Shown here: in pieces, positions 5,455 to 59,767 of the stretch
How positions within the stretch are numbered: position 1 is the first letter of the stretch
How the letters are laid out: each line of letters starts with the position of its first letter
Assembly (NCBI GenBank): GCA_951406725.2
Contig: OX597826.1
Coordinates: forward strand, 27,652,001 to 27,716,000
DNA length: 64,000 nucleotides
Origin: Octopus vulgaris
Lineage: Eukaryota
Direction: 5' to 3'
The notes under the pieces: model-generated
Database searches by the model: none
Seen by the model: the letters and a program-made list of their open reading frames with translations, nothing else
What the model was told of the DNA's origin: nothing
Made by a program: the position numbers and the translations under genes

Positions 5455-6117
5455 TTAGTATTCCTGGCCCAGGGTGTTTAAACTTGGTCTAAATGTTTTT
5501 ATGAAATATAGTTCTTTATTTTGGCGTTGTGTGAAGGTTGCGTTGTCACTGAATTTATAGAACGGGTTAGTTGTAAATTTCGGATTTACATTTCCAGCAC
5601 ATCTATCTATGTGTCCGCTGACCGGTATTTTGCGGTAATCAGGGTTTCTAATTTGTGATTTATGCACCGCCATCCTGTTACGTAAGCTATTTTTTGTATG
5701 GCCTATATACTGCCTATTGCAGCCTGCGCATGTTATGACGTAAATTAAGTTTTCTGATGCGCAGGTGAAGTTTGTTCTAATGGTGAACTGGTGGCCTTGT
5801 TCCAGTATAAATTCTGATCCTTCTTTCAAGATGACACAGATTCCGCAGTTGGGCCTTCCACATTTTCTAACTGCTGGTTTTGTGGTTGATGTTGAGTGCA
5901 GTGTAGCTTGGGTTAAAATCCTTTTCAAGGATTTTGGTTGCCGTTTACTTTTAATGATGGTGTGTGTTTCGAGGATCCGGTTCATCTTTGGGTCTCCCTT
6001 TAGTAGGGCTGTGCTTTGTAGTATGGTGTTGAAGGCCTCATTGTTGAGTGGGTTGTGTGTAGAGATGTAGGGAAGGGTTTTTAATTGTTCTTTCTTTTTT
6101 GGTTTTGTTTGTTTCAT
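5455..6117 (-). pseudogene. PLE RT-EN linker and GIY-YIG endonuclease fragment
   Basis: RKCGRPNCGIC linker (Neptune-type Cys motif), NLIYVITCAGCNRQYIGHT..LRNRMAVH...VSGHIDRC (CCHH), KELYFIKTFRPSLN. The ORF start comes from the flanking TA tract. Confidence 0.85.
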
Positions 6118-6400
6118 ATATATACATATATATATATATGTGCATATATATATATATATGCATGGTGTGTGTGTGTTTATGGCTGTATGTACGTATATTC
6201 CAAAATGTATATATACTATATATATACTATATATATATATACATACACATAAACACAGACAAGGTCTCTTTCACACACCAATACAGGCATGTACACATAT
6301 GTAAATGTGTATCATTATAGAAAGATATATATATATATAAATATATATAAACGCATGATATAACTATGAACATTGGTATATATAAGCATATACACACAAC

Positions 6401-10066: not shown

Positions 10067-10210
10067 GATAAGAAAGGAATAGCTACTATGAAGGAAAAGA
10101 TAAGAAAGGAATAGCTACTATGAAGGAAAAGATAAGAAAGGAATAGCTACTATGAAGGAAAAGATAAGAAAGGAATAAGCTACTATGAAGGAAAAGATAA
10201 GAAAGGAATA
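10064..10210 (+). repeat. 32-bp tandem reiteration (4 full + 1 partial) of the LINE 5' truncation end
   Basis: GCTACTATGAAGGAAAAGATAAGAAAGGAATA at 10082, 10114, 10146 and 10179, plus a partial unit at 10064. The last unit is in frame with the LINE ORF. Confidence 0.95.
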
Positions 10211-11635
10211 TTATAGGAGAATAAGGCTTGTACTGAAGACTGAACTCAACTCCAAAAATTGCATTGAGGCCATTAACACCCTGGCACTTCCAGTAGTCCA
10301 GTACAGTTTTAACATCATTAACTGGAACCTTACGGAACTCCAACGCTTGGACAGGAAGACAAGAAAGTTACTGACATCCAAGAGCATGCACCACCCTAAG
10401 GCAGATGTAGACCGCTTGTACCTACCTAGAAGCAGCGGGAGGAGAGGAATGATGCAATTAGAGCTGTGCTATAAGACCTCTACTGTAGGAATGAACAGGT
10501 ACCTATCTAGTACAAAGGACTGGATGCTGCGATTTGTGTGCGAACACGAAAGCAGCAAAAAGCTGCATTCTATTGTCAAGGAAGCTTATAAGTTCGAAAG
10601 GGAACTAGACGTTAACCTTGAATCAGATGAAGAGTCGGAAACCACTGCTACCAAGCAAGCAAAGCGAATCAAGCAGACTGCAAAAAAGAACGGGCAGAAT
10701 CAAATTGAGAGGAGGTGGAGCCAGAAGCCCCTGCATGGACAATATATTCTCCGAAGCCAAAATGCTGATGTAGACCAAGCAACAACCCATCAGTGGCTGA
10801 AGAGCTCTGGATTGAAAGCAGAGACTGAAGGCTTCATAATGGCAGCACAAGATCAAAGCTTGTTTACCAGAAATTACCAGGCTAACGTTCTCCGAAACGG
10901 TACTGACCCTAAATGCAGATTATGTGACACATTTGACGAAACAATAGACCACCTCGTTTCGGGATGTCCTGTGCTGACACCAAACGAATACAAAAATCGC
11001 CACGATAGGGTAGGACAGTATATACATTGGAAAATATGTAAACACTACAAATCCGACACTCCTGCTAACTGGTATGAACACAATCCTCAGCCAGTTGTTG
11101 AAGGTAAAGATGTCACCATCCTCTGGGATTTTCCAGTCAACACTGACAGAACGATCAAGGCTAATCGACCAGACATAATTATGAAAGACAGGGAAGAAAA
11201 TACCTGCAGACTAATAGAAGTAAGCGTCCCCACTGATAAAAATGTATCTGTCAAGGAATTTGACAAACTTAGTAAATATAAGGACCTGGAAATCGAAATA
11301 CAGAGGATGTGGAATCTTAAAACAAAAACTGTTCCTGTTATTGTAGGTGCCCTAGGTATGATAAAAAAAGGGATGTCAGAAACACCTAGACAATATCCCT
11401 GGAAAACCATGTCTCAAGGAAATCCAAAAGATTGTGCTAACAAGTACTGCCCACATCCTTAGAAAAACCCTATCAATGTAAATGTTTGTTTTTGCATTAC
11501 ATTGAGATATATCTCTACTTCCCCTCCCCAAGCTTTCAGCTATATTTCAACAACTCTTAACCTTCACTTGCCCTAGGGCGCTGGGTGTGCTCCGGCAAGT
11601 GATTGCATCAAACATGCAAATTAAAAGTAAATGAC
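10179..11635 (+). mobile_element. 5'-truncated R4-clade (Dong-like) RLE non-LTR retrotransposon in (TAA)n
   Basis: ORF motifs given in the next feature; short 3' UTR ending in an AAT tract; (TAA)n on both flanks, as known for Dong. Confidence 0.85.
10185..11481 (+). pseudogene. R4/Dong ORF C-terminal half: RT thumb, CCHC zinc knuckle, restriction-like endonuclease
   Basis: HHPKADVDRLYLPRSSGRRG, AAQDQ, CRLC..DETIDHLVSGC, RHD, RPDII...LIEVSVP, K..KY, VIVGALG. A +1 frameshift near 11363-11372; the shifted frame continues CQKHLDNIPG..EIQKIVLTSTAHILRKTLSM* (stop 11479-11481). Confidence 0.9.
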
Positions 11636-41420: not shown

Positions 41421-41502
41421 CCTATCTGTCAGTCTGTCTTATCTATATCTATGTATCTAGATAGACAGAAAGAAAGAAATATGTAGATAGATAGATAGAT
41501 AA

Positions 41503-41597
<95 letters not shown>

Positions 41598-41972
41598 TAG
41601 AAATATTAAGCACAGTCACGTAAAATCTAACAGTACAGATTGTTTTAATATTAATGTATAACTAGGTAGCTTTGGTGATAACATATATAAATGTATGTGC
41701 CTGAGTGGATTGTGTGTGTGTATGTTGTATGTGCATACGTGTACATATACGCACACAGACATGCATATGTGTTTGTGCATTGTATGTGTCCATACATATA
41801 TACAATTACAATACATTTTATCACACACACATTCTTAAATGTCTGTACAAATTTAATTTGTTTCAATGCGTACGTAACTCTATTTAATGTCTATGGTTAA
41901 TACTTCGTTATACACACAGGCACATACACACACACACGCACGCAGACAAACATACACACACACATAGATATA

Positions 41973-42012
<40 letters not shown>

Positions 42013-42042
42013 GAAAGAGAGAGATATAGATTTATATATATG

Positions 42043-42090
<48 letters not shown>

Positions 42091-42525
42091 CATATATATA
42101 AATCTATATCTCTCTCTTTCTATGTATATATATATATATATATATATATTCATATATCTATGTGTGTGTGTATGTTTGTCTGCGTGCGTGTGTGTGTATG
42201 TGCCTGTGTGTATAACGAAGTATTAACCATAGACATTAAATAGAGTTACGTACGCATTGAAACAAATTAAATTTGTACAGACATTTAAGAATGTGTGTGT
42301 GATAAAATGTATTGTAATTGTATATATGTATGGACACATACAATGCACAAACACATATGCATGTCTGTGTGCGTATATGTACACGTATGCACATACAACA
42401 TACACACACACAATCCACTCAGGCACATACATTTATATATGTTATCACCAAAGCTACCTAGTTATACATTAATATTAAAACAATCTGTACTGTTAGATTT
42501 TACGTGACTGTTCTTAATATTTCTA

Positions 42526-42607
<82 letters not shown>

Positions 42608-42670
42608 CATATTTCTTTCTTTCTGTCTATCTAGATACATAGATATAGATAAGACAGACTGACAGATAGG

Positions 42671-46362: not shown

Positions 46363-46563
46363 GGTCCCGGGTTGATTCGGGGTTAACCACAGTAAGTAAG
46401 GTACTCAATACATAGCAGAGTAAAATTAATTTATTATATAGAAGGAGCTTCTACAGGACTAGTACTGTTTCATTCAAGAGAAATCTTCAGGAAGCACAGG
46501 AATCTTCCTGAAGATTTCTCTTGAATGAAACAGTACTAGTCCTGTAGAAGCTCCTTCTATATA

Positions 46564-49789: not shown

Positions 49790-49821
<32 letters not shown>

Positions 49822-49826
<5 letters not shown>

Positions 49827-51196
49827 TGAGTGTATTTTACCTTGTTAACAATTAACACGGATAAATGAATGAATAGTTACCAGGGCAGCAAAATCTCACA
49901 AGTAAAGATGTTGTAACTCCTTGTTTATAAAGGTTGAAACTTCGTGTTTACGTTGAATATTTGAATAATAGGAATAAAAAATGGAGTCAACGCAGGTTTA
50001 AACAAGTATTTTTTCTTTCTACATATGTTTCAAAAATTCCACTGATACTTATTCAAAAGAATAAAAGGTATAAACAATGCAATCTTCTCTTCGGGAAAGT
50101 GAAAAAACGAAACTTGTCAATACGACATTTTAGCAAAAAATGATGGATTCGTATAGCGATAGACAGAACGCTATTAATATTGTTTAAAAAAACGTTATAT
50201 GATATAACGTCATAAGTAGCTAACAGAAAGAGTAGGGATATTAATAGTGAATGTTAAATATAAAGGAAATTAAAGTCTAAACTATATATAATGATAGAGA
50301 CTACTTATATGCACTAAAAGTATGCTTTTGCCAATGCTTACATCTGTATGCTCGTTCTATAACCGTGTTTACTAGAGTATTTTTAGAAAAAATAATGAAA
50401 AATAGCTCAGAATTGCAGAGAAGACAGAATTTCTTGCCTTTGTCCTATGGTATCGAAATTGAGAGGATCAACCATTCCAAATGAAATTGTTCATTGTGGT
50501 CTTTTAAATTCCAAATCAGTTTGCTGAGACCGGTACTATTCCGTTTATTTCTATCCCTAAATGTTGAGTAATGGATAGAAATTCTCTTAGATAACTCTAA
50601 CGATGTGCTTCCAATGTAAAATCGTACTTTATTACGAGTACTGATTATACACTGGTATATAGAATTTTTAATCTTAGAGTTACTTGACATAAATTTAATT
50701 CTATTGGGATTGACTTCAGATACAATAACCTTGTTATTAATATTTCTAGAGGGTTGGATGGTAGTAGCTAAATTAATGTTAGTATTAGTAAATGTATTAA
50801 TATTTAACAGTTTGTTATTATGAGAAGATATAATTTGCAAGAGATTTTTTGTGTTTGAAAAACCTATCCTAACCTTATGTGAATTAATTATAGAGTAATA
50901 TCTAGAATTATTTGGAAAATTCCTAGCAATAGCTTGACGAAACAGCAGTGGGAGATTAGATTTAATTTGTCTCCCGTAAGGAATTATTAACCAAATATTT
51001 TTACTAGTATTCATAGCGTAATTACTTTTGAAGGTGTTATATTTACTTTTAGATCGGTAATAGGGGAATAAATAAGGGTTATCTGCCTTCATTCGCTTTG
51101 TATCGGTGCGTAAGTTATGTTTGTTATCAATAATTCTTTTACGACTAGAAATCATATCTACATTATTGAATTTACAATTAGACTGAGCAGAATCAA
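49822..51196 (-). repeat. Inverted 5'-truncated copy of the PLE (ORF from ~53294 + full pLTR)
   Basis: Reverse complement of 53294-54526 plus ~140 bp matching 51665-51806; junction GAATCAA|AATTCTG at ~51196. Confidence 0.95.
50009..50107 (-). ncRNA. Hammerhead fold (inverted arm copy)
   Basis: Reverse complement of 51521-51619. Confidence 0.65.
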
Positions 51197-51806
51197 AATT
51201 CTGTCTTCTCTGCAATTCTGAGCTATTTTTCATTATTTTTTCTAAAAATACTCTAGTAAACACGGTTATAGAACGAGCATACAGATGTAAGCATTGGCAA
51301 AAGCATACTTTTAGTGCATATAAGTAGTCTCTATCATTATATATAGTTTAGACTTTAATTTCCTTTATATTTAACATTCACTATTAATATCCCTACTCTT
51401 TCTGTTAGCTACTTATGACGTTATATCATATAACGTTTTTTTAAACAATATTAATAGCGTTCTGTCTATCGCTATACGAATCCATCATTTTTTGCTAAAA
51501 TGTCGTATTGACAAGTTTCGTTTTTTCACTTTCCCGAAGAGAAGATTGCATTGTTTATACCTTTTATTCTTTTGAATAAGTATCAGTGGAATTTTTGAAA
51601 CATATGTAGAAAGAAAAAATACTTGTTTAAACCTGCGTTGACTCCATTTTTTATTCCTATTATTCAAATATTCAACATAAACACGAAGTTTCAACCTTTA
51701 TAAACAAGGAGTTACAACATCTTTACTTGTGAGATTTTGCTGCCCTGGTAACTATTCATTCATTTATCCGTGTTAATTGTTAACAAGGTAAAATACACTC
51801 ATCTAT
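51196..51806 (+). repeat. 5' pseudo-LTR
   Basis: Direct repeat of 54058-54526 with a ~140-bp extension shared with the inverted arm. Confidence 0.92.
51521..51619 (+). ncRNA. Type I hammerhead fold with extended stem II (5' pLTR copy)
   Basis: CTTTC-CCGAAGA-G AAGATT G CATTG..ATAC..TTATTC(TTTT)GAATAA GTAT CAGTG G AATTTT T-GAAAC-ATAT-GTA-GAAAG. Confidence 0.65.
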
Positions 51807-51861: not shown

Positions 51862-54045
51862 ATGGAGTTATTGAATATTAACGCATCTCTTAAGGACATT
51901 CCTATTCCACCTAAGAATGTTTTCCTCAAACAACTTGTCAATAAGATTAATTCATTCATCAACCGAATAAGATGGCTTACCTTTTTCTTTGACAAAAATG
52001 ACACTCAACAACACACTAATGATAAAACATCTGAGTTCAGCAAGTTATTTAAATCTAATAATAGTCCGCCGCCTAACCCAAGGTTGAAGCAATTTGAAGA
52101 TGATCTCTGGTCCATTGTGAGAAATGTAAAATTTCAACGGTCACCACTAAGAAATAAACATCTGAGGTATCTTCGCAACATCACCAAAGAAATCAATTCT
52201 ATGGATACTATGTTGGTTCAATCTGATAAGACTGGTAATCTGTACAAACTTTATAAAGACTATTATTTGGAATTACTTGAAAAAGAAATTCAGAAAAAGT
52301 ATAAAATTGCTGATAAAAGAATACTTAAGAAAGCCAACATCGAGGCTATGAAAATCATGGAGAAATATAACCTACAAATGAAGACAGAACCTCTTGTTCC
52401 TAAGCAACCTAGGTTTATTTTGAAGGATCACAAACCAAATTTTTTTACTAACCCATCATTAAGGCTTATCTGCCCTTCTAGCTCTGACATCGGTATCCTT
52501 AGTAAAAATATACTAGATAAATATATTCCTAATCTAATCAAAACATTAAAACTTAGATTATGGACTAATTCATTTGACGTAGTTGACTGGTTTAGGTCTA
52601 TTAACAGTAAGGTGAGTACGAAGTTTATCCAGTTTGATATTTCCAATTTTTATTCGTCTATTAATCCTATAGTACTTAATAAGGCACTTTGGCTTGCTCA
52701 TAACAAAGCTGGTCTCACCCGAGAAGAAATTAATGTTGTGTTGGCAGCCAGAAGATCTATTATTAAATTTGATGATAAGTTGTGGGTCCGTAAAAACACA
52801 CCAGATAGTTTCGATATACCTATGGGAAGTTCTGATTCAGCACAGATAGCTGATTTGGTCTGTATATACATTCTTTTTGAAATGGCTGAAGAGTTCCCTA
52901 ACATTTATGGAGGTCTATATCGTGATGATTGTTTACTTTACCTCCAAAATGTTTCTAACCAAAAGGTACAAAAAGTTAAGAACAGTTTAGTTAATTTTTT
53001 CAGTAGAATGGGCTTAAAAATCGTTTTTGATGACGATCTGACGAAGGCCAACTTTTTAGATATTACCCTTAATTTACACAGTGACTCTTACTTCCCATAT
53101 CATAAACCGTTGACCAATCTTAAGTACATTAGCAAATTTAGTAATCATCCTGGAGCAATTACTAAGAATTTAGTTAAGAATATTTCATTTAGATTATCTA
53201 AATTATCTGCTAATGTTGATATTTTCAATAATAACGCTGAATTCTATAACTCTGCCTTAATCAAAGCAGGTTATACAGAAAAAATTTTCTACATTGATTC
53301 TGCTCAGTCTAATTGGAAATTCAATAATGTAGATATGATTTCTAGTCGTAAAAGAATTATTGATAACAAACATAACTTACGCACCGATACAAAGCGAATG
53401 AAGGCAGATAACCCTTATTTATTCCCCTATTACCGATCTAAAAGTAAATATAACACCTTCAAAAGTAATTACGCTATGAATACTAGTAAAAATATTTGGT
53501 TAATAATTCCTTACGGGAGACAAATTAAATCTAATCTCCCACTGCTGTTTCGTCAAGCTATTGCTAGGAATTTTCCAAATAATTCTAGATATTACTCTAT
53601 AATTAATTCACATAAGGTTAGGATAGGTTTTTCAAACACAAAAAATCTCTTGCAAATTATATCTTCTCATAATAACAAACTGTTAAATATTAATACATTT
53701 ACTAATACTAACATTAATTTAGCTACTACCATCCAACCCTCTAGAAATATTAATAACAAGGTTATTGTATCTGAAGTCAATCCCAATAGAATTAAATTTA
53801 TGTCAAGTAACTCTAAGATTAAAAATTCTATATACCAGTGTATAATCAGTACTCGTAATAAAGTACGATTTTACATTGGAAGCACATCGTTAGAGTTATC
53901 TAAGAGAATTTCTATCCATTACTCAACATTTAGGGATAGAAATAAACGGAATAGTACCGGTCTCAGCAAACTGATTTGGAATTTAAAAGACCACAATGAA
54001 CAATTTCATTTGGAATGGTTGATCCTCTCAATTTCGATACCATAG
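51862..54045 (+). CDS. PLE polyprotein: reverse transcriptase + GIY-YIG endonuclease (727 aa; frame continues 47 aa past the UAG to 54189)
   Basis: SDKTGN, LKDHK, LRLICP, FIQFDISNFYSSI, IPMGSSDSAQIADL, GGLYRDD, NFLDITL, SNHP; EN: SIYQC..FYIGST..KRISIH..STGLSKLIWNLK. Confidence 0.93.
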   Translation: MELLNINASLKDIPIPPKNVFLKQLVNKINSFINRIRWLTFFFDKNDTQQHTNDKTSEFSKLFKSNNSPPPNPRLKQFEDDLWSIVRNVKFQRSPLRNKHLRYLRNITKEINSMDTMLVQSDKTGNLYKLYKDYYLELLEKEIQKKYKIADKRILKKANIEAMKIMEKYNLQMKTEPLVPKQPRFILKDHKPNFFTNPSLRLICPSSSDIGILSKNILDKYIPNLIKTLKLRLWTNSFDVVDWFRSINSKVSTKFIQFDISNFYSSINPIVLNKALWLAHNKAGLTREEINVVLAARRSIIKFDDKLWVRKNTPDSFDIPMGSSDSAQIADLVCIYILFEMAEEFPNIYGGLYRDDCLLYLQNVSNQKVQKVKNSLVNFFSRMGLKIVFDDDLTKANFLDITLNLHSDSYFPYHKPLTNLKYISKFSNHPGAITKNLVKNISFRLSKLSANVDIFNNNAEFYNSALIKAGYTEKIFYIDSAQSNWKFNNVDMISSRKRIIDNKHNLRTDTKRMKADNPYLFPYYRSKSKYNTFKSNYAMNTSKNIWLIIPYGRQIKSNLPLLFRQAIARNFPNNSRYYSIINSHKVRIGFSNTKNLLQIISSHNNKLLNINTFTNTNINLATTIQPSRNINNKVIVSEVNPNRIKFMSSNSKIKNSIYQCIISTRNKVRFYIGSTSLELSKRISIHYSTFRDRNKRNSTGLSKLIWNLKDHNEQFHLEWLILSISIP

Positions 54046-54057
54046 GACAAAGGCAAG

Positions 54058-54521
54058 AAATTCTGTCTTCTCTGCAATTCTGAGCTATTTTTCATTATTT
54101 TTTCTAAAAATACTCTAGTAAACACGGTTATAGAACGAGCATACAGATGTAAGCATTGGCAAAAGCATACTTTTAGTGCATATAAGTAGTCTCTATCATT
54201 ATATATAGTTTAGACTTTAATCTCCTTTATATTTAACATTCACTATTAATATCCCTACTCTTTCTGTTAGCTACTTATGACGTTATATCATATAACGTTT
54301 TTTTAAACAATATTAATAGCGTTCTGTCTATCGCTATACGAATCCATCATTTTTTGCTAAAATGTCGTATTGACAAGTTTCGTTTTTTCACTTTCCCGAA
54401 GAGAAGATTGCATTGTTTATACCTTTTATTCTTTTGAATAAGTATCAGTGGAATTTTTGAAACATATGTAGAAAGAAAAAATACTTGTTTAAACCTGCGT
54501 TGACTCCATTTTTTATTCCTA

Positions 54522-54526
<5 letters not shown>
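54058..54526 (+). repeat. 3' pseudo-LTR (overlaps the extreme C-terminus of the endonuclease frame)
   Basis: Near-identical to 51196-51664. Confidence 0.92.
54383..54481 (+). ncRNA. Hammerhead fold (3' pLTR copy)
   Basis: Same sequence as 51521-51619. Confidence 0.65.
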
Positions 54527-54560
<34 letters not shown>

Positions 54561-54563
<3 letters not shown>

Positions 54564-54930
54564 TTTTGTGCTTATTGCTTCTGTTGACAGTTCAAATACC
54601 GAGATTTGGAAGTGTTTCGCCATCTAAAGACTCTTTAGTGAAGTAGGCATATATATACCGAGATTTGGAAGTGTTTCGCCATCTAAAGACTCTTTAGTGA
54701 AATAGGCATATATATATATATATGCCTACTTCACTAAAGAGTCTTTAGATGGCGAAACACTTCCAAATCTCGGTATTTGAACTGTCAACAGAAGCAATAA
54801 TAAGCACAAAATGATATTCTTTGTGTCTAAATATGCTTTAGTTTTACAGAACTATTTTACTAATTAGATATAATTCCATCTCCCTAATTATACTGCGAAG
54901 ACCGTAGAATCGTAATATAATTTTTTTCAG
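54561..54930. mobile_element. Second PLE-type pLTR remnant: two minus-strand partial copies head-to-head with a plus copy
   Basis: 54561-54650 and 54658-54709 mirror 54722-54813. Degenerate hammerhead CTAAAGA-GTC(TTTAGAT)GGC-GAAAC...GTC. Confidence 0.65.
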
Positions 54931-55304: not shown

Positions 55305-55495
55305 GTTAATTCAAATATACAAACAATTGAAATAAAGGGATAAAAAACGAACAAAAAACAACGAACGTGAGGATGTGCGAAAAATTAGCTTCACGATCGG
55401 TGAAAGGAGAGAGTTTAAGGTTTCGAGCATAGCTCTTCGTCGAAATGGAGAAAAGGAAAATGAAGGAGGAGAAGAAGTCACCATCGGGCCACATG
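55305..55495 (-). mobile_element. PLE pLTR remnant with degenerate minimal hammerhead
   Basis: Minus strand TTTCGACGA-AGAGC(TAT)GCTC-GAAAC; related to 58191. Confidence 0.55.
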
Positions 55496-56038
55496 TAATT
55501 ACACACACACATATACATAATTAGGAATAAAATATTCAAACCGAATATTCATAAAGATATTATTGTTGCTAATATTATCTACGATAAATATAGGTAATCA
55601 ATAATATCAGTAACAAAAATGCAGGCGGTTAACAGGCATTAAATAGCGCTATATAGCTATAAAACTTTTAAATTAAGGTTAAGCATCAAAGCGTTCGTAC
55701 ACCATACCTGTTAGAAATAGGCGATAGAACCCCAAACTAAGCCGCCGAAAAACTAAGAAGTAAGACAGAAGGTTAACGAATTCAATACATACCTTTGTAG
55801 ATAATGTAACTCAGATATTCGTTACCTAGATTTCGGAATTCTGGCCCTCTGGGCCTCAGTTCCTCATTATATATATATATATATTGCGTCTCGGGTCCTT
55901 TTCTGAGCACTTCTGAGTAGCGCCTATACAATCAACAAAAAAAATTACTATATATTTGTGTGTCTGTTAACCCACCATAGCTTGTCAACCGATGTTGATG
56001 TGTTTACGTAACTTAGCGGTTCGCCAAATGAGGCCGCG

Positions 56039-57539: not shown

Positions 57540-57999
57540 GGTGAAAGATAATTAATTTAATAAAATCAACAAATTTCACCTAGCAGTATTTCGGTATGGA
57601 AAAGGACCATATTCGGTAAAAACTTATATAATTATAACAATAAGGGTTTTGCAACAAGTTGCTTGGCCACATACCGAAAATTTTAGAAATAGCAGCCAAA
57701 GGACTACTATTTCCTTTTTCTACAAAAATATGTCTCCACAGGCAACAATATTTGTAACTCACATATGCTAATTTCTTTCTTCCTCCTCCTCCTTCAATAA
57801 ATTGCTTTTAACAATTTTTTAAAATAACTTACCGGCTTTCCCTTCATCATACATGCAGTCATCACATATGTGAGTTACAAATATTGTTGCCTGTGGAGAC
57901 ATATTTTTGTAGAAAAAGGAAATAGTAGTCCTTTGGCTGCTATTTCTAAAATTTTTGGTATGTGGTCAAGCAAGTTGTTGCAAAACCCTTATTGTTATA

Positions 58000-58190: not shown

Positions 58191-58393
58191 GTTAATTCAA
58201 ACATGAACAAAGAGAAAACACAACAACGCGAGGACGTGGAACAAGTATAGTGTTATTGGAGGCTCAGGAAAGGAAAGAAAGAAGGAGGATTCAACGTTTC
58301 GAGCAGAGCTCTTCGTCAGAAACATAGAAAAGGAAAGGTCCAAAGAAGGGAAGCCGGAAAAAGAAAATCGCCAACCATACATACGCGGTCACA
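58191..58393 (-). mobile_element. PLE pLTR remnant containing an intact minimal hammerhead core (58289-58325)
   Basis: Minus strand GTTT-CTGACGA-A-GAGC(TCT)GCTC-GAAAC-GTT-GAAT, with a palindromic AACGTT stem III. Confidence 0.7.
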
Positions 58394-58399
58394 ACCTTT

Positions 58400-58715
58400 A
58401 TTCCTATTCACCTATCGCACTCTATCTCTCCACTTTTAGTTTACTGCTAATTTCTTTCTTTCTCCTCCTTCTCTTTCAATAAATTGCCTTTAACGTTTTT
58501 TTTTAAATAACTTACCGGCGTTCCCTTCATCAAACATGTAGTCATCACATTCGGTTACAATGTCTTATTGGTGCCTATTGTTTCTCTCTTTTTCCCTAAT
58601 GAGAAGATTGCGTTGTTTTACATCATTTTATTCCTTCTGGAATAATACCAATACTTTCTGCGAAACATATGTCAGAAGTATAAAGATTTGAATAACACCT
58701 CCGTTTAAACTCCAT
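58400..58715 (+). mobile_element. Diverged pLTR related to the intact PLE, with long-stem-II hammerhead relic
   Basis: TTCCCTAATGAGAAGATTGCGTTGTTT...TTATTCC(TTCT)GGAATAA...CGAAACATATGTCAGAAG parallels 51531-51612. Confidence 0.7.
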
Positions 58716-59767
58716 ATATATATCTATATATATATATATATACATACATACATACATACATACATACATACATACATACATACATACATACATACATACA
58801 TACGGGCATCTTTTAGTTTCCCTCAGCCGAATCAACTCACAGGGCATTTTTCGGCCCGGGGCTATATTAGGAGATGTTCAAGATGTCTATTATATTTTCA
58901 TTTTGTTATTAATATTACTTTTGGTGATTGGCGGATTCGATTTCAAAGCTTCATCAAGATAGACCGTAGCCAATTAGCAAAGAACTTTATTTGTAATTAA
59001 TCCGAAATCCACGGGGCTAATTCCGACAGTGATTGACGACGGAAAGATAAGGATGTCGAAGCAAGAAAAACAATTTTTAAGGCAAATATATACGCTACGT
59101 TTACATTCGGTTTCCTTGACAACCGAGTAATATTCAAATTATATCTGGAAGGGTTTTTAGGGATAATAAACAGTTGGAAATATTATCATTTAATCTCCAA
59201 ATAGAACTTAATCGAAGGAAATAGTAGAGTGGCGACATAAAAATTCTGTACAAGGAATACTACAGGCTATGACTAAGAGTACTTGACAAAAGTAACGTGG
59301 CCCAATTGTGCACTTGTTCCTCTTGAAATTGGGGAGCTGCAACATACAAGTACCAAAAACAAACATAGAAACGCGAGCAAGCGAACACATTTTTTCATTC
59401 TTCTTGAAGAGGATAAGAAAGGAGAAAAGAAATTTATAAAGTTTGACATCATAATGATGGTAAACAGGTAAACATAACGAATGAAATATTCTGCGCTAAG
59501 CTATATACAAGTTTGTGTGTATGTATGTATGTATGTATGTATGTATGTATGTATGTACGTATGTAAGAATATCTGTCTTGCTGTCTATCTACACACACAC
59601 GCTCACTCACACACGCACACACACATACACACGCTTGGGCACGTTAGAGAACACTTAAAAAAAAAGAAAATCGAAAGGTAGAACTCTAAAACTCGAATTA
59701 AAATTTATAACTGAGTAAGTTAAACATCAGAAGATGAGATACGCGTGCTCGGATAAAAATAATAGTA

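Follow-up and report, generated by a model that had tools for sequence, protein, structure and literature searches.

A type I hammerhead motif, whose stem II region measures 56 nt and whose core has C instead of U at position 4, was located in the pseudo-LTR (pLTR) of a Hydra-like Penelope-like element (PLE), within the 64-kb stretch of DNA that was analysed as a whole (the window). In our preferred reading, to which we give a probability of roughly 0.58, this C4 is the majority letter of the element's family, the ribozyme is probably weakened by it, and cleavage is predicted to depend on dimerisation through stem III. The motif is a real, non-chance hammerhead homologue and not a new ribozyme class, and its two oddities, C4 and the long stem II region, have separate precedents.

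Anatomy of the motif and its host element

An exact search of the 64-kb window with the 99-mer of 51521–51619 returned matches at 51521 (+), 54383 (+) and 50009–50107 (−), the three copies that an earlier note on this DNA had described (Table 1). They were rejected as independent support for the motif because all are parts of one insertion. In copy 1, a 5-bp stem I (CTTTC, 51529–51533, with GAAAG, 51609–51613) leads into the core CCGAAGA (51534–51540; C3-C4-G5-A6-A7-G8-A9, with C4 at 51535), the stem II region (51541–51596, about 22 bp with bulges), the GAA of G12–A14 (51597–51599), a palindromic 8-nt stem III (51600–51607) and A17 (51608) of the GUA triplet. Stem I, the core with U4>C, the palindromic stem III and the GUA triplet were thus all located by sequence where the earlier note had placed them, and every stem II sub-helix that it named is present in the predicted fold; stem II is long as claimed, with 56 nt counted instead of about 57.

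Table 1. Positions of the hammerhead copies, the host insertion and the older relative in the window
Feature	Position	Strand	Remarks
Hammerhead copy 1	51529–51613	+	in upstream pLTR; predicted cut after A17 (51608)
Hammerhead copy 2	54391–54475	+	in downstream pLTR; identical to copy 1; position 4 at 54397; predicted cut after 54470
Hammerhead copy 3	50015–50099	−	in inverted 5'-truncated copy; identical to copy 1; C3 at 50094
Upstream pseudo-LTR	51196–51671	+	476 nt; 99.4% identical to 54058–54533
PLE ORF, RT and C-terminal GIY-YIG-type endonuclease	51862–54045	+	RWL and DKT motifs
Downstream pseudo-LTR	54058–54533	+	ends in (TA)n tract
Inverted 5'-truncated copy	49817–51196	−	matches 53294–54533 plus a stretch to 51811; (TA)n-bordered
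Old 3'-end fragment of related family, decayed hammerhead	58491–58739	+	68% identity over 253 nt

Sequence and predicted fold together give the type I layout, in which three helices surround the core and stem I is open-ended. C3, G5, A6, G8, A9, G12, A13, A14, A15.1-U16.1 and H17 are all as required for a type I hammerhead; the U4 of the CUGA turn is absent and is replaced by C at 51535 and 54397. For the 85-mer monomer, the minimum (−14.4 kcal/mol) has stems I and II formed and stem III open, while the fold forced into the hammerhead reached −13.3 kcal/mol. The minimum fold of the 99-nt sequence takes a competing register, and in contexts of 141–372 nt the pair probabilities were 0.02–0.08 for stem I and 0.49–1.0 for stem II.

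Such an arrangement could arise where an AT-rich hairpin and the word GAAAC happen to lie together in a 3' UTR, and the one core mismatch, the lack of an Rfam match and the whole-motif folding z-scores of only −1.5 to −2.4 would agree with this. The stem II hairpin (51542–51598) gave z = −2.99, one of 200 shuffles folding equally well. However, when both strands were searched with a relaxed descriptor that permits one core mismatch, as the earlier note had proposed, four matches were obtained in the window, three of them being copies 1–3, against 0.23 matches per shuffled 64-kb window, and none of 30 shuffles equalled the motif. Related elements also carry a hammerhead in the corresponding region, and U4 is present in a minority of the family and in an old relative. 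Chance is thus an extremely unlikely explanation, and the claim that the PLE pLTR carries a variant of the type I hammerhead is borne out by anatomy, by position in the pLTR and by the shuffled controls.

The host insertion carries (TA)n at both ends and consists of a partial tandem with an inverted truncated copy; its unit measures 2,862 nt and holds a single ORF. Besides two terminal letters at the (TA)n start, the arms differ at two positions, which indicates that the insertion is very young and that its copies are not independent. The ORF has the DKT motif and an RWL that is a variant of RWK and, by inspection, its C-terminal GIY-YIG-type domain is without CCHH; the stop cuts off a CxxC/CxH tail that reads on in frame to 54189. 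No Pfam match was obtained in the ORF at E ≤ 0.01. The unit below 3 kb, the single ORF, the (TA)n target and the partial tandem are all Hydra-clade features, and the RWK-type and DKT motifs, the GIY-YIG without CCHH and the CxxC and CxH (beyond the stop) are as described for this clade. In contrast, the CxCX5C linker of Hydra-clade PLEs is absent from the window ORF. A CxC..C linker was found in 83 of 91 relatives, and the Octopus sinensis fragment P0030 is also cysteine-free there; judged by these sequences, the missing linker looks like a lineage trait. The host element, which shares motifs with the Hydra clade and is without the linker, is best described as Hydra-like.

Protein comparison gave 29 homologues of the ORF at 28–39% identity, an Argonauta protein among them, and nearer PLE fragments in Octopus sinensis (P0030 and P0031, 43–50%). 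The latter carry the names 'DDB_G0288805-like' and 'myb-like protein I' and look like mis-annotated fragments of the window PLE lineage. These similarities point to an octopod as the likely host. In a FastTree tree restricted to the relatives retrieved, the window ORF grouped with P0001, P0002 and Argonauta P0009 with a support of 100. A premature stop, present at 54043–54045 and at the corresponding site of the inverted arm, truncates the endonuclease tail of either arm. The family's contig depth has a different reading there almost throughout, and the stop-bearing window copy probably was mobilised in trans or acquired the change as it was copied.

Position 4 in the family and in an older relative

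In order to follow position 4 through the family, four of the 24 listed public runs were aligned to 53980–54525; three of them are contig sets, and the fourth, raw-read run X22, in which 3 of 12.9 million reads matched, was left out of the counts. At position 54397, T made up 29373 of 184434 summed contig depth in run X6 (16%, 34 contigs), 6407 of 21154 in run X8 (30%, 30 contigs) and 273 of 1062 in run X4 (26%, 4 contigs). C4 is the majority letter, with 70–84% of summed depth in the contigs of the three runs, a rough share that counts contig depth instead of reads or copies and favours reference-like sequences, as contigs unlike the window copy drop out. These data show that C4 is a family trait, and a private decay of the window copy was ruled out. 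Sites 54222 and 54340, like the stop at 54045, are essentially private to the window copy or its sublineage. Simple CpG decay was also ruled out as the source of T, since among the 12 CpGs of the stretch C>T was listed only at the position-4 CpG and the G of that CpG had no listed G>A.

Elsewhere in the core, no position was variable at 4% or more among the variant rows listed for the X6, X8 and X4 contigs. Position 54476 is T in 53–96% of contig depth, which gives a sixth stem I pair. Within stem II, the rows listed for the family contain a single substitution, located in a bulge, and a single deletion, located in a run of AA. Overall, variant density in the motif (2/85) was not significantly below that of the adjoining UTR (14/248; Fisher p = 0.38). 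Three X6 contigs with loose ends behind 54440 appear to represent a sister subfamily, which has C11.1, a shorter stem III and GUC and seems to retain the long stem II on its 3' strand.

The absence of significant excess conservation would agree with a dead C4 form, that is, an ancestral long-stem hammerhead inactivated in one master copy that rose to a high copy number as a passenger, cleavage being irrelevant for transposition and only the U4 minority able to cut. The same explanation draws on the instability of stem I in longer contexts and on a substitution that comes on top of an already slow ribozyme class (parts of PMC4209133 covered), and further on published observations, in the parts of the papers covered, that insertion in vitro is independent of the ribozyme (PMC11167929) and that Naiad elements thrive without canonical hammerheads (PMC8557442). 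On the other hand, the lack of variation at the other core positions among the rows listed, the stem-I-extending letter in many contigs and the viroid U4C hammerhead that stayed functional in vivo (PMC3088659, in part) are not expected of it. We consider inactivation of C4 doubtful, though a serious possibility.

A diverged relative had been proposed at about 58590–58677 as evidence of structural conservation. The relationship is real (Table 1) and its GUC was found. Its core (58596–58602) reads CUAAUGA, in which U4 is kept and G5 is changed to A, the usual hammerhead-inactivating change. The stem II region is 59 nt long, the 8-nt stem III is the same as that of the window motif, and GUC is followed by (TA)n; in stem I, the pair beside the cleavage site is broken. 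When the 16 pairs of the lower stem II were compared, with a 4-pair helix of the relative ambiguously aligned, seven were broken, four had one-sided changes that still pair and five were unchanged. The apical hairpin, which had been thought to differ in sequence, proved to be the window sequence plus one C–G pair and was therefore rejected as covariation; outside this added pair, no two-sided compensatory change was seen in the two alignable sequences. With a decayed core and seven of 16 lower pairs broken, the relative does not support the structural conservation that had been read into it. Since it has U4 together with a 59-nt stem II, it suggests, on sequence grounds, that the long stem II is older than C4. 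A weak match (62%, E = 0.018) lies at 55511–55623 (−), and a 97-nt direct repeat (57772–57867 and 58455–58550, 89% identical) overlaps the 5' end of the old relative.

This succession bears on the explanation that the long bulged stem II forms a new tertiary contact or a protein-binding site that rescues C4, which would turn the motif into an efficient ribozyme with a new architecture. The prediction of stem II is stable throughout the tested contexts, the length of this stem is kept in the 68%-identical relative, where four changes on one side leave the pairing intact, its variants among the rows listed are those two described above, and tertiary contacts are able to offset core variants (PMC3088659, in the parts covered). 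However, the older relative has the long stem with U4, hence the long stem did not arise to rescue C4; in addition, no complement between loop II and stem I was found, and covariation was not seen in the two-sequence comparison. A rescuing stem II is consequently quite unlikely. The wider proposal, that an octopod PLE lineage has acquired a new architecture with stem II as a functional module, and that C4 was favoured as a down-tuning which spares tandem transcripts and aids amplification, is in our view speculative and unlikely.

Comparison with related loci and published hammerheads

Related elements were represented by 77 metagenome loci, drawn from the best 80 of 376 confirmed stretches. 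A hammerhead-like motif was found on the coding strand in 58 of them, giving 52 distinct motifs; several of the 19 loci without one end near the ORF. The stem II region measured 10–25 nt in the 49 distinct motifs with a canonical core (median 18 over all 52), and C4 occurred in none of the 52 distinct motifs. An ACA/ACT-type stem III of 8–10 nt was present in 47 of the 52 and the GUA triplet in 42. Three long-stem matches among the relatives (51, 61 and 68 nt; L062 and L066) were discarded as alternative pairings, having mismatched cores and a canonical short motif alongside. Measured against these loci, stems I and III, the triplet and the position of the window motif are ordinary, whereas the length of stem II and C4 are outliers.

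The earlier note had expected standard hammerhead models to miss the variant. No hammerhead was indeed present among the 150 of 606 Rfam matches in the window that were listed, all of them microRNA models on repeats or hairpins, and none among the six local matches at the motif. Rfam likewise found no hammerhead in relatives with textbook short motifs (4/4 at E ≤ 10 and 6/6 at the gathering threshold). The miss is thus true but not special to the variant. Such motifs will be undercounted by descriptors that prescribe CUGANGA and allow only a short stem II. A two-part family motif gave no match in metagenome contigs and none in viral contigs; its one match in prokaryote genomes was rejected as chance, lying on a contig of 45% GC without further similarity. 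A protein search of viral contigs left 0 of 103 stretches confirmed.

Hydra-clade PLE hammerheads, in the parts of Craig et al. 2021 (PMC8557442) covered, share with the window motif the type I order, the place in the 3' UTR/pLTR, a stem I of 4–7 bp, a palindromic ACA/ACT-type stem III, a GUA, GUC or GUU triplet, a DKT host element and the (TA)n target. By contrast, all 26 Hydra rows published there have U4 and, by our own count, a stem II region of 12–26 nt, as opposed to C4 and 56 nt in the window, and the motif of the octopus family Hydra-1_Obim is a short one of another kind. Long spacings are nevertheless described in the same parts of that paper. In the deviant hammerheads of spike-moss PLE-X1, the core halves are about 54 and 48 nt apart (own count), and in the 'half-cores' of Naiad, Octopus and Euprymna included, which are without an established fold, the spacing is 35–50 nt. 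Unlike the window motif, both belong to unrelated PLE lineages, have the canonical U4 and combine a short helix with a large loop where the window has a continuous bulged helix.

The minimal PLE hammerheads (Cervera and de la Peña 2014, PMC4209133; review PMC6765202; both in part) also have a weak palindromic stem III, predicted dimer action and low expected activity, and they tolerate core variants, as in the U3-A8 family of Schistosoma. A 'large' helix II means 6–8 bp among them (PMC4209133), compared with about 22 bp in the window, and the covered parts of PMC4209133 describe no family with U4>C. The core substitution itself is identical to that of the viroid U4C hammerhead (Ambros and Flores 1998, cited in the covered parts of PMC3088659), which had lower activity in vitro, yet enough for infectivity. 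In the viroid, however, it is a variant of a monomer-competent ribozyme, whereas in the window's family, a multicopy retroelement of animals, C4 is the majority letter. In the openly accessible text passages searched, a PLE hammerhead combining C4 with a long stem II was not reported; Lunse et al. 2017, or supplements and figures, may include similar variants.

Predicted mode of action and other features of the window

Cofolding of two copies was predicted to give a double hammerhead at −38.4 kcal/mol, against 2 × −14.4 kcal/mol for the monomers, and the self-duplex of stem III was predicted at −7.0 kcal/mol. Together with a stem III that is short, palindromic and placed in a pLTR, this agrees with the dimer-type action that the earlier note gave for PLE pLTR hammerheads. 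PLE hammerheads are described as slow and dimer-dependent in the parts of PMC4209133 covered.

According to the preferred reading of a weakened, dimer-dependent ribozyme, a transcript through both pLTRs would pair two motifs 2,862 nt apart as a double hammerhead. Slow cuts after 51608 and 54470 would then free a 2,862-nt unit RNA with the whole ORF, possibly assisted by the element's protein, as in the anole PLE, where hammerhead cleavage required it (PMC11167929, parts covered). U4>C would lower the cleavage rate, as reported for the viroid hammerhead. The long stem II probably predates C4, and C4 probably spread as a young subfamily amplified strongly, since transposition probably does not depend on efficient cleavage. 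As C4 is the majority in the family data, the family likely multiplied with the predicted weakened ribozyme. By analogy, the observation that insertion in vitro is not impaired by mutation of a PLE hammerhead (PMC11167929, in part) fits amplification of a C4 subfamily. The hammerheads of pLTRs may serve to process the RNA used in transposition or may be mere passengers (PMC8557442 and PMC11167929, in the parts covered); coexisting U4 and C4 forms provide a natural allele pair for asking if cleavage rate affects PLE amplification. At the window locus itself, a transcript reading through from upstream would enclose copy 1 in a hairpin of 616 nt formed with the inverted arm.

Several other features were observed in the window. 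Short-stem hammerhead-core remnants of another repeat family, with a stem II region of 12–13 nt, lie at 58319 (−), 37448 (−) and, by eye, about 55400–55460 (−). The 89 nt of 46455–46543 form a near-perfect palindrome, either strand of which contains CUGAAGA...GAAAC. Directly after the 3' (TA)n of the insertion, a 260-nt palindromic element (54558–54817) contains, by eye, a hammerhead-core-like word with G5>A. At 41501–42622, two arms of 561 nt that are 93% complementary form an inverted repeat without a spacer. Two further ORFs are, from their sequence matches, remains of other retroelements: a GIY-YIG fragment at 5455–6270 (−), with E = 8.9e-07, and an ORF at 10179–11462 (+) whose weak similarity to zf-RVT does not reach the curated cut-off.
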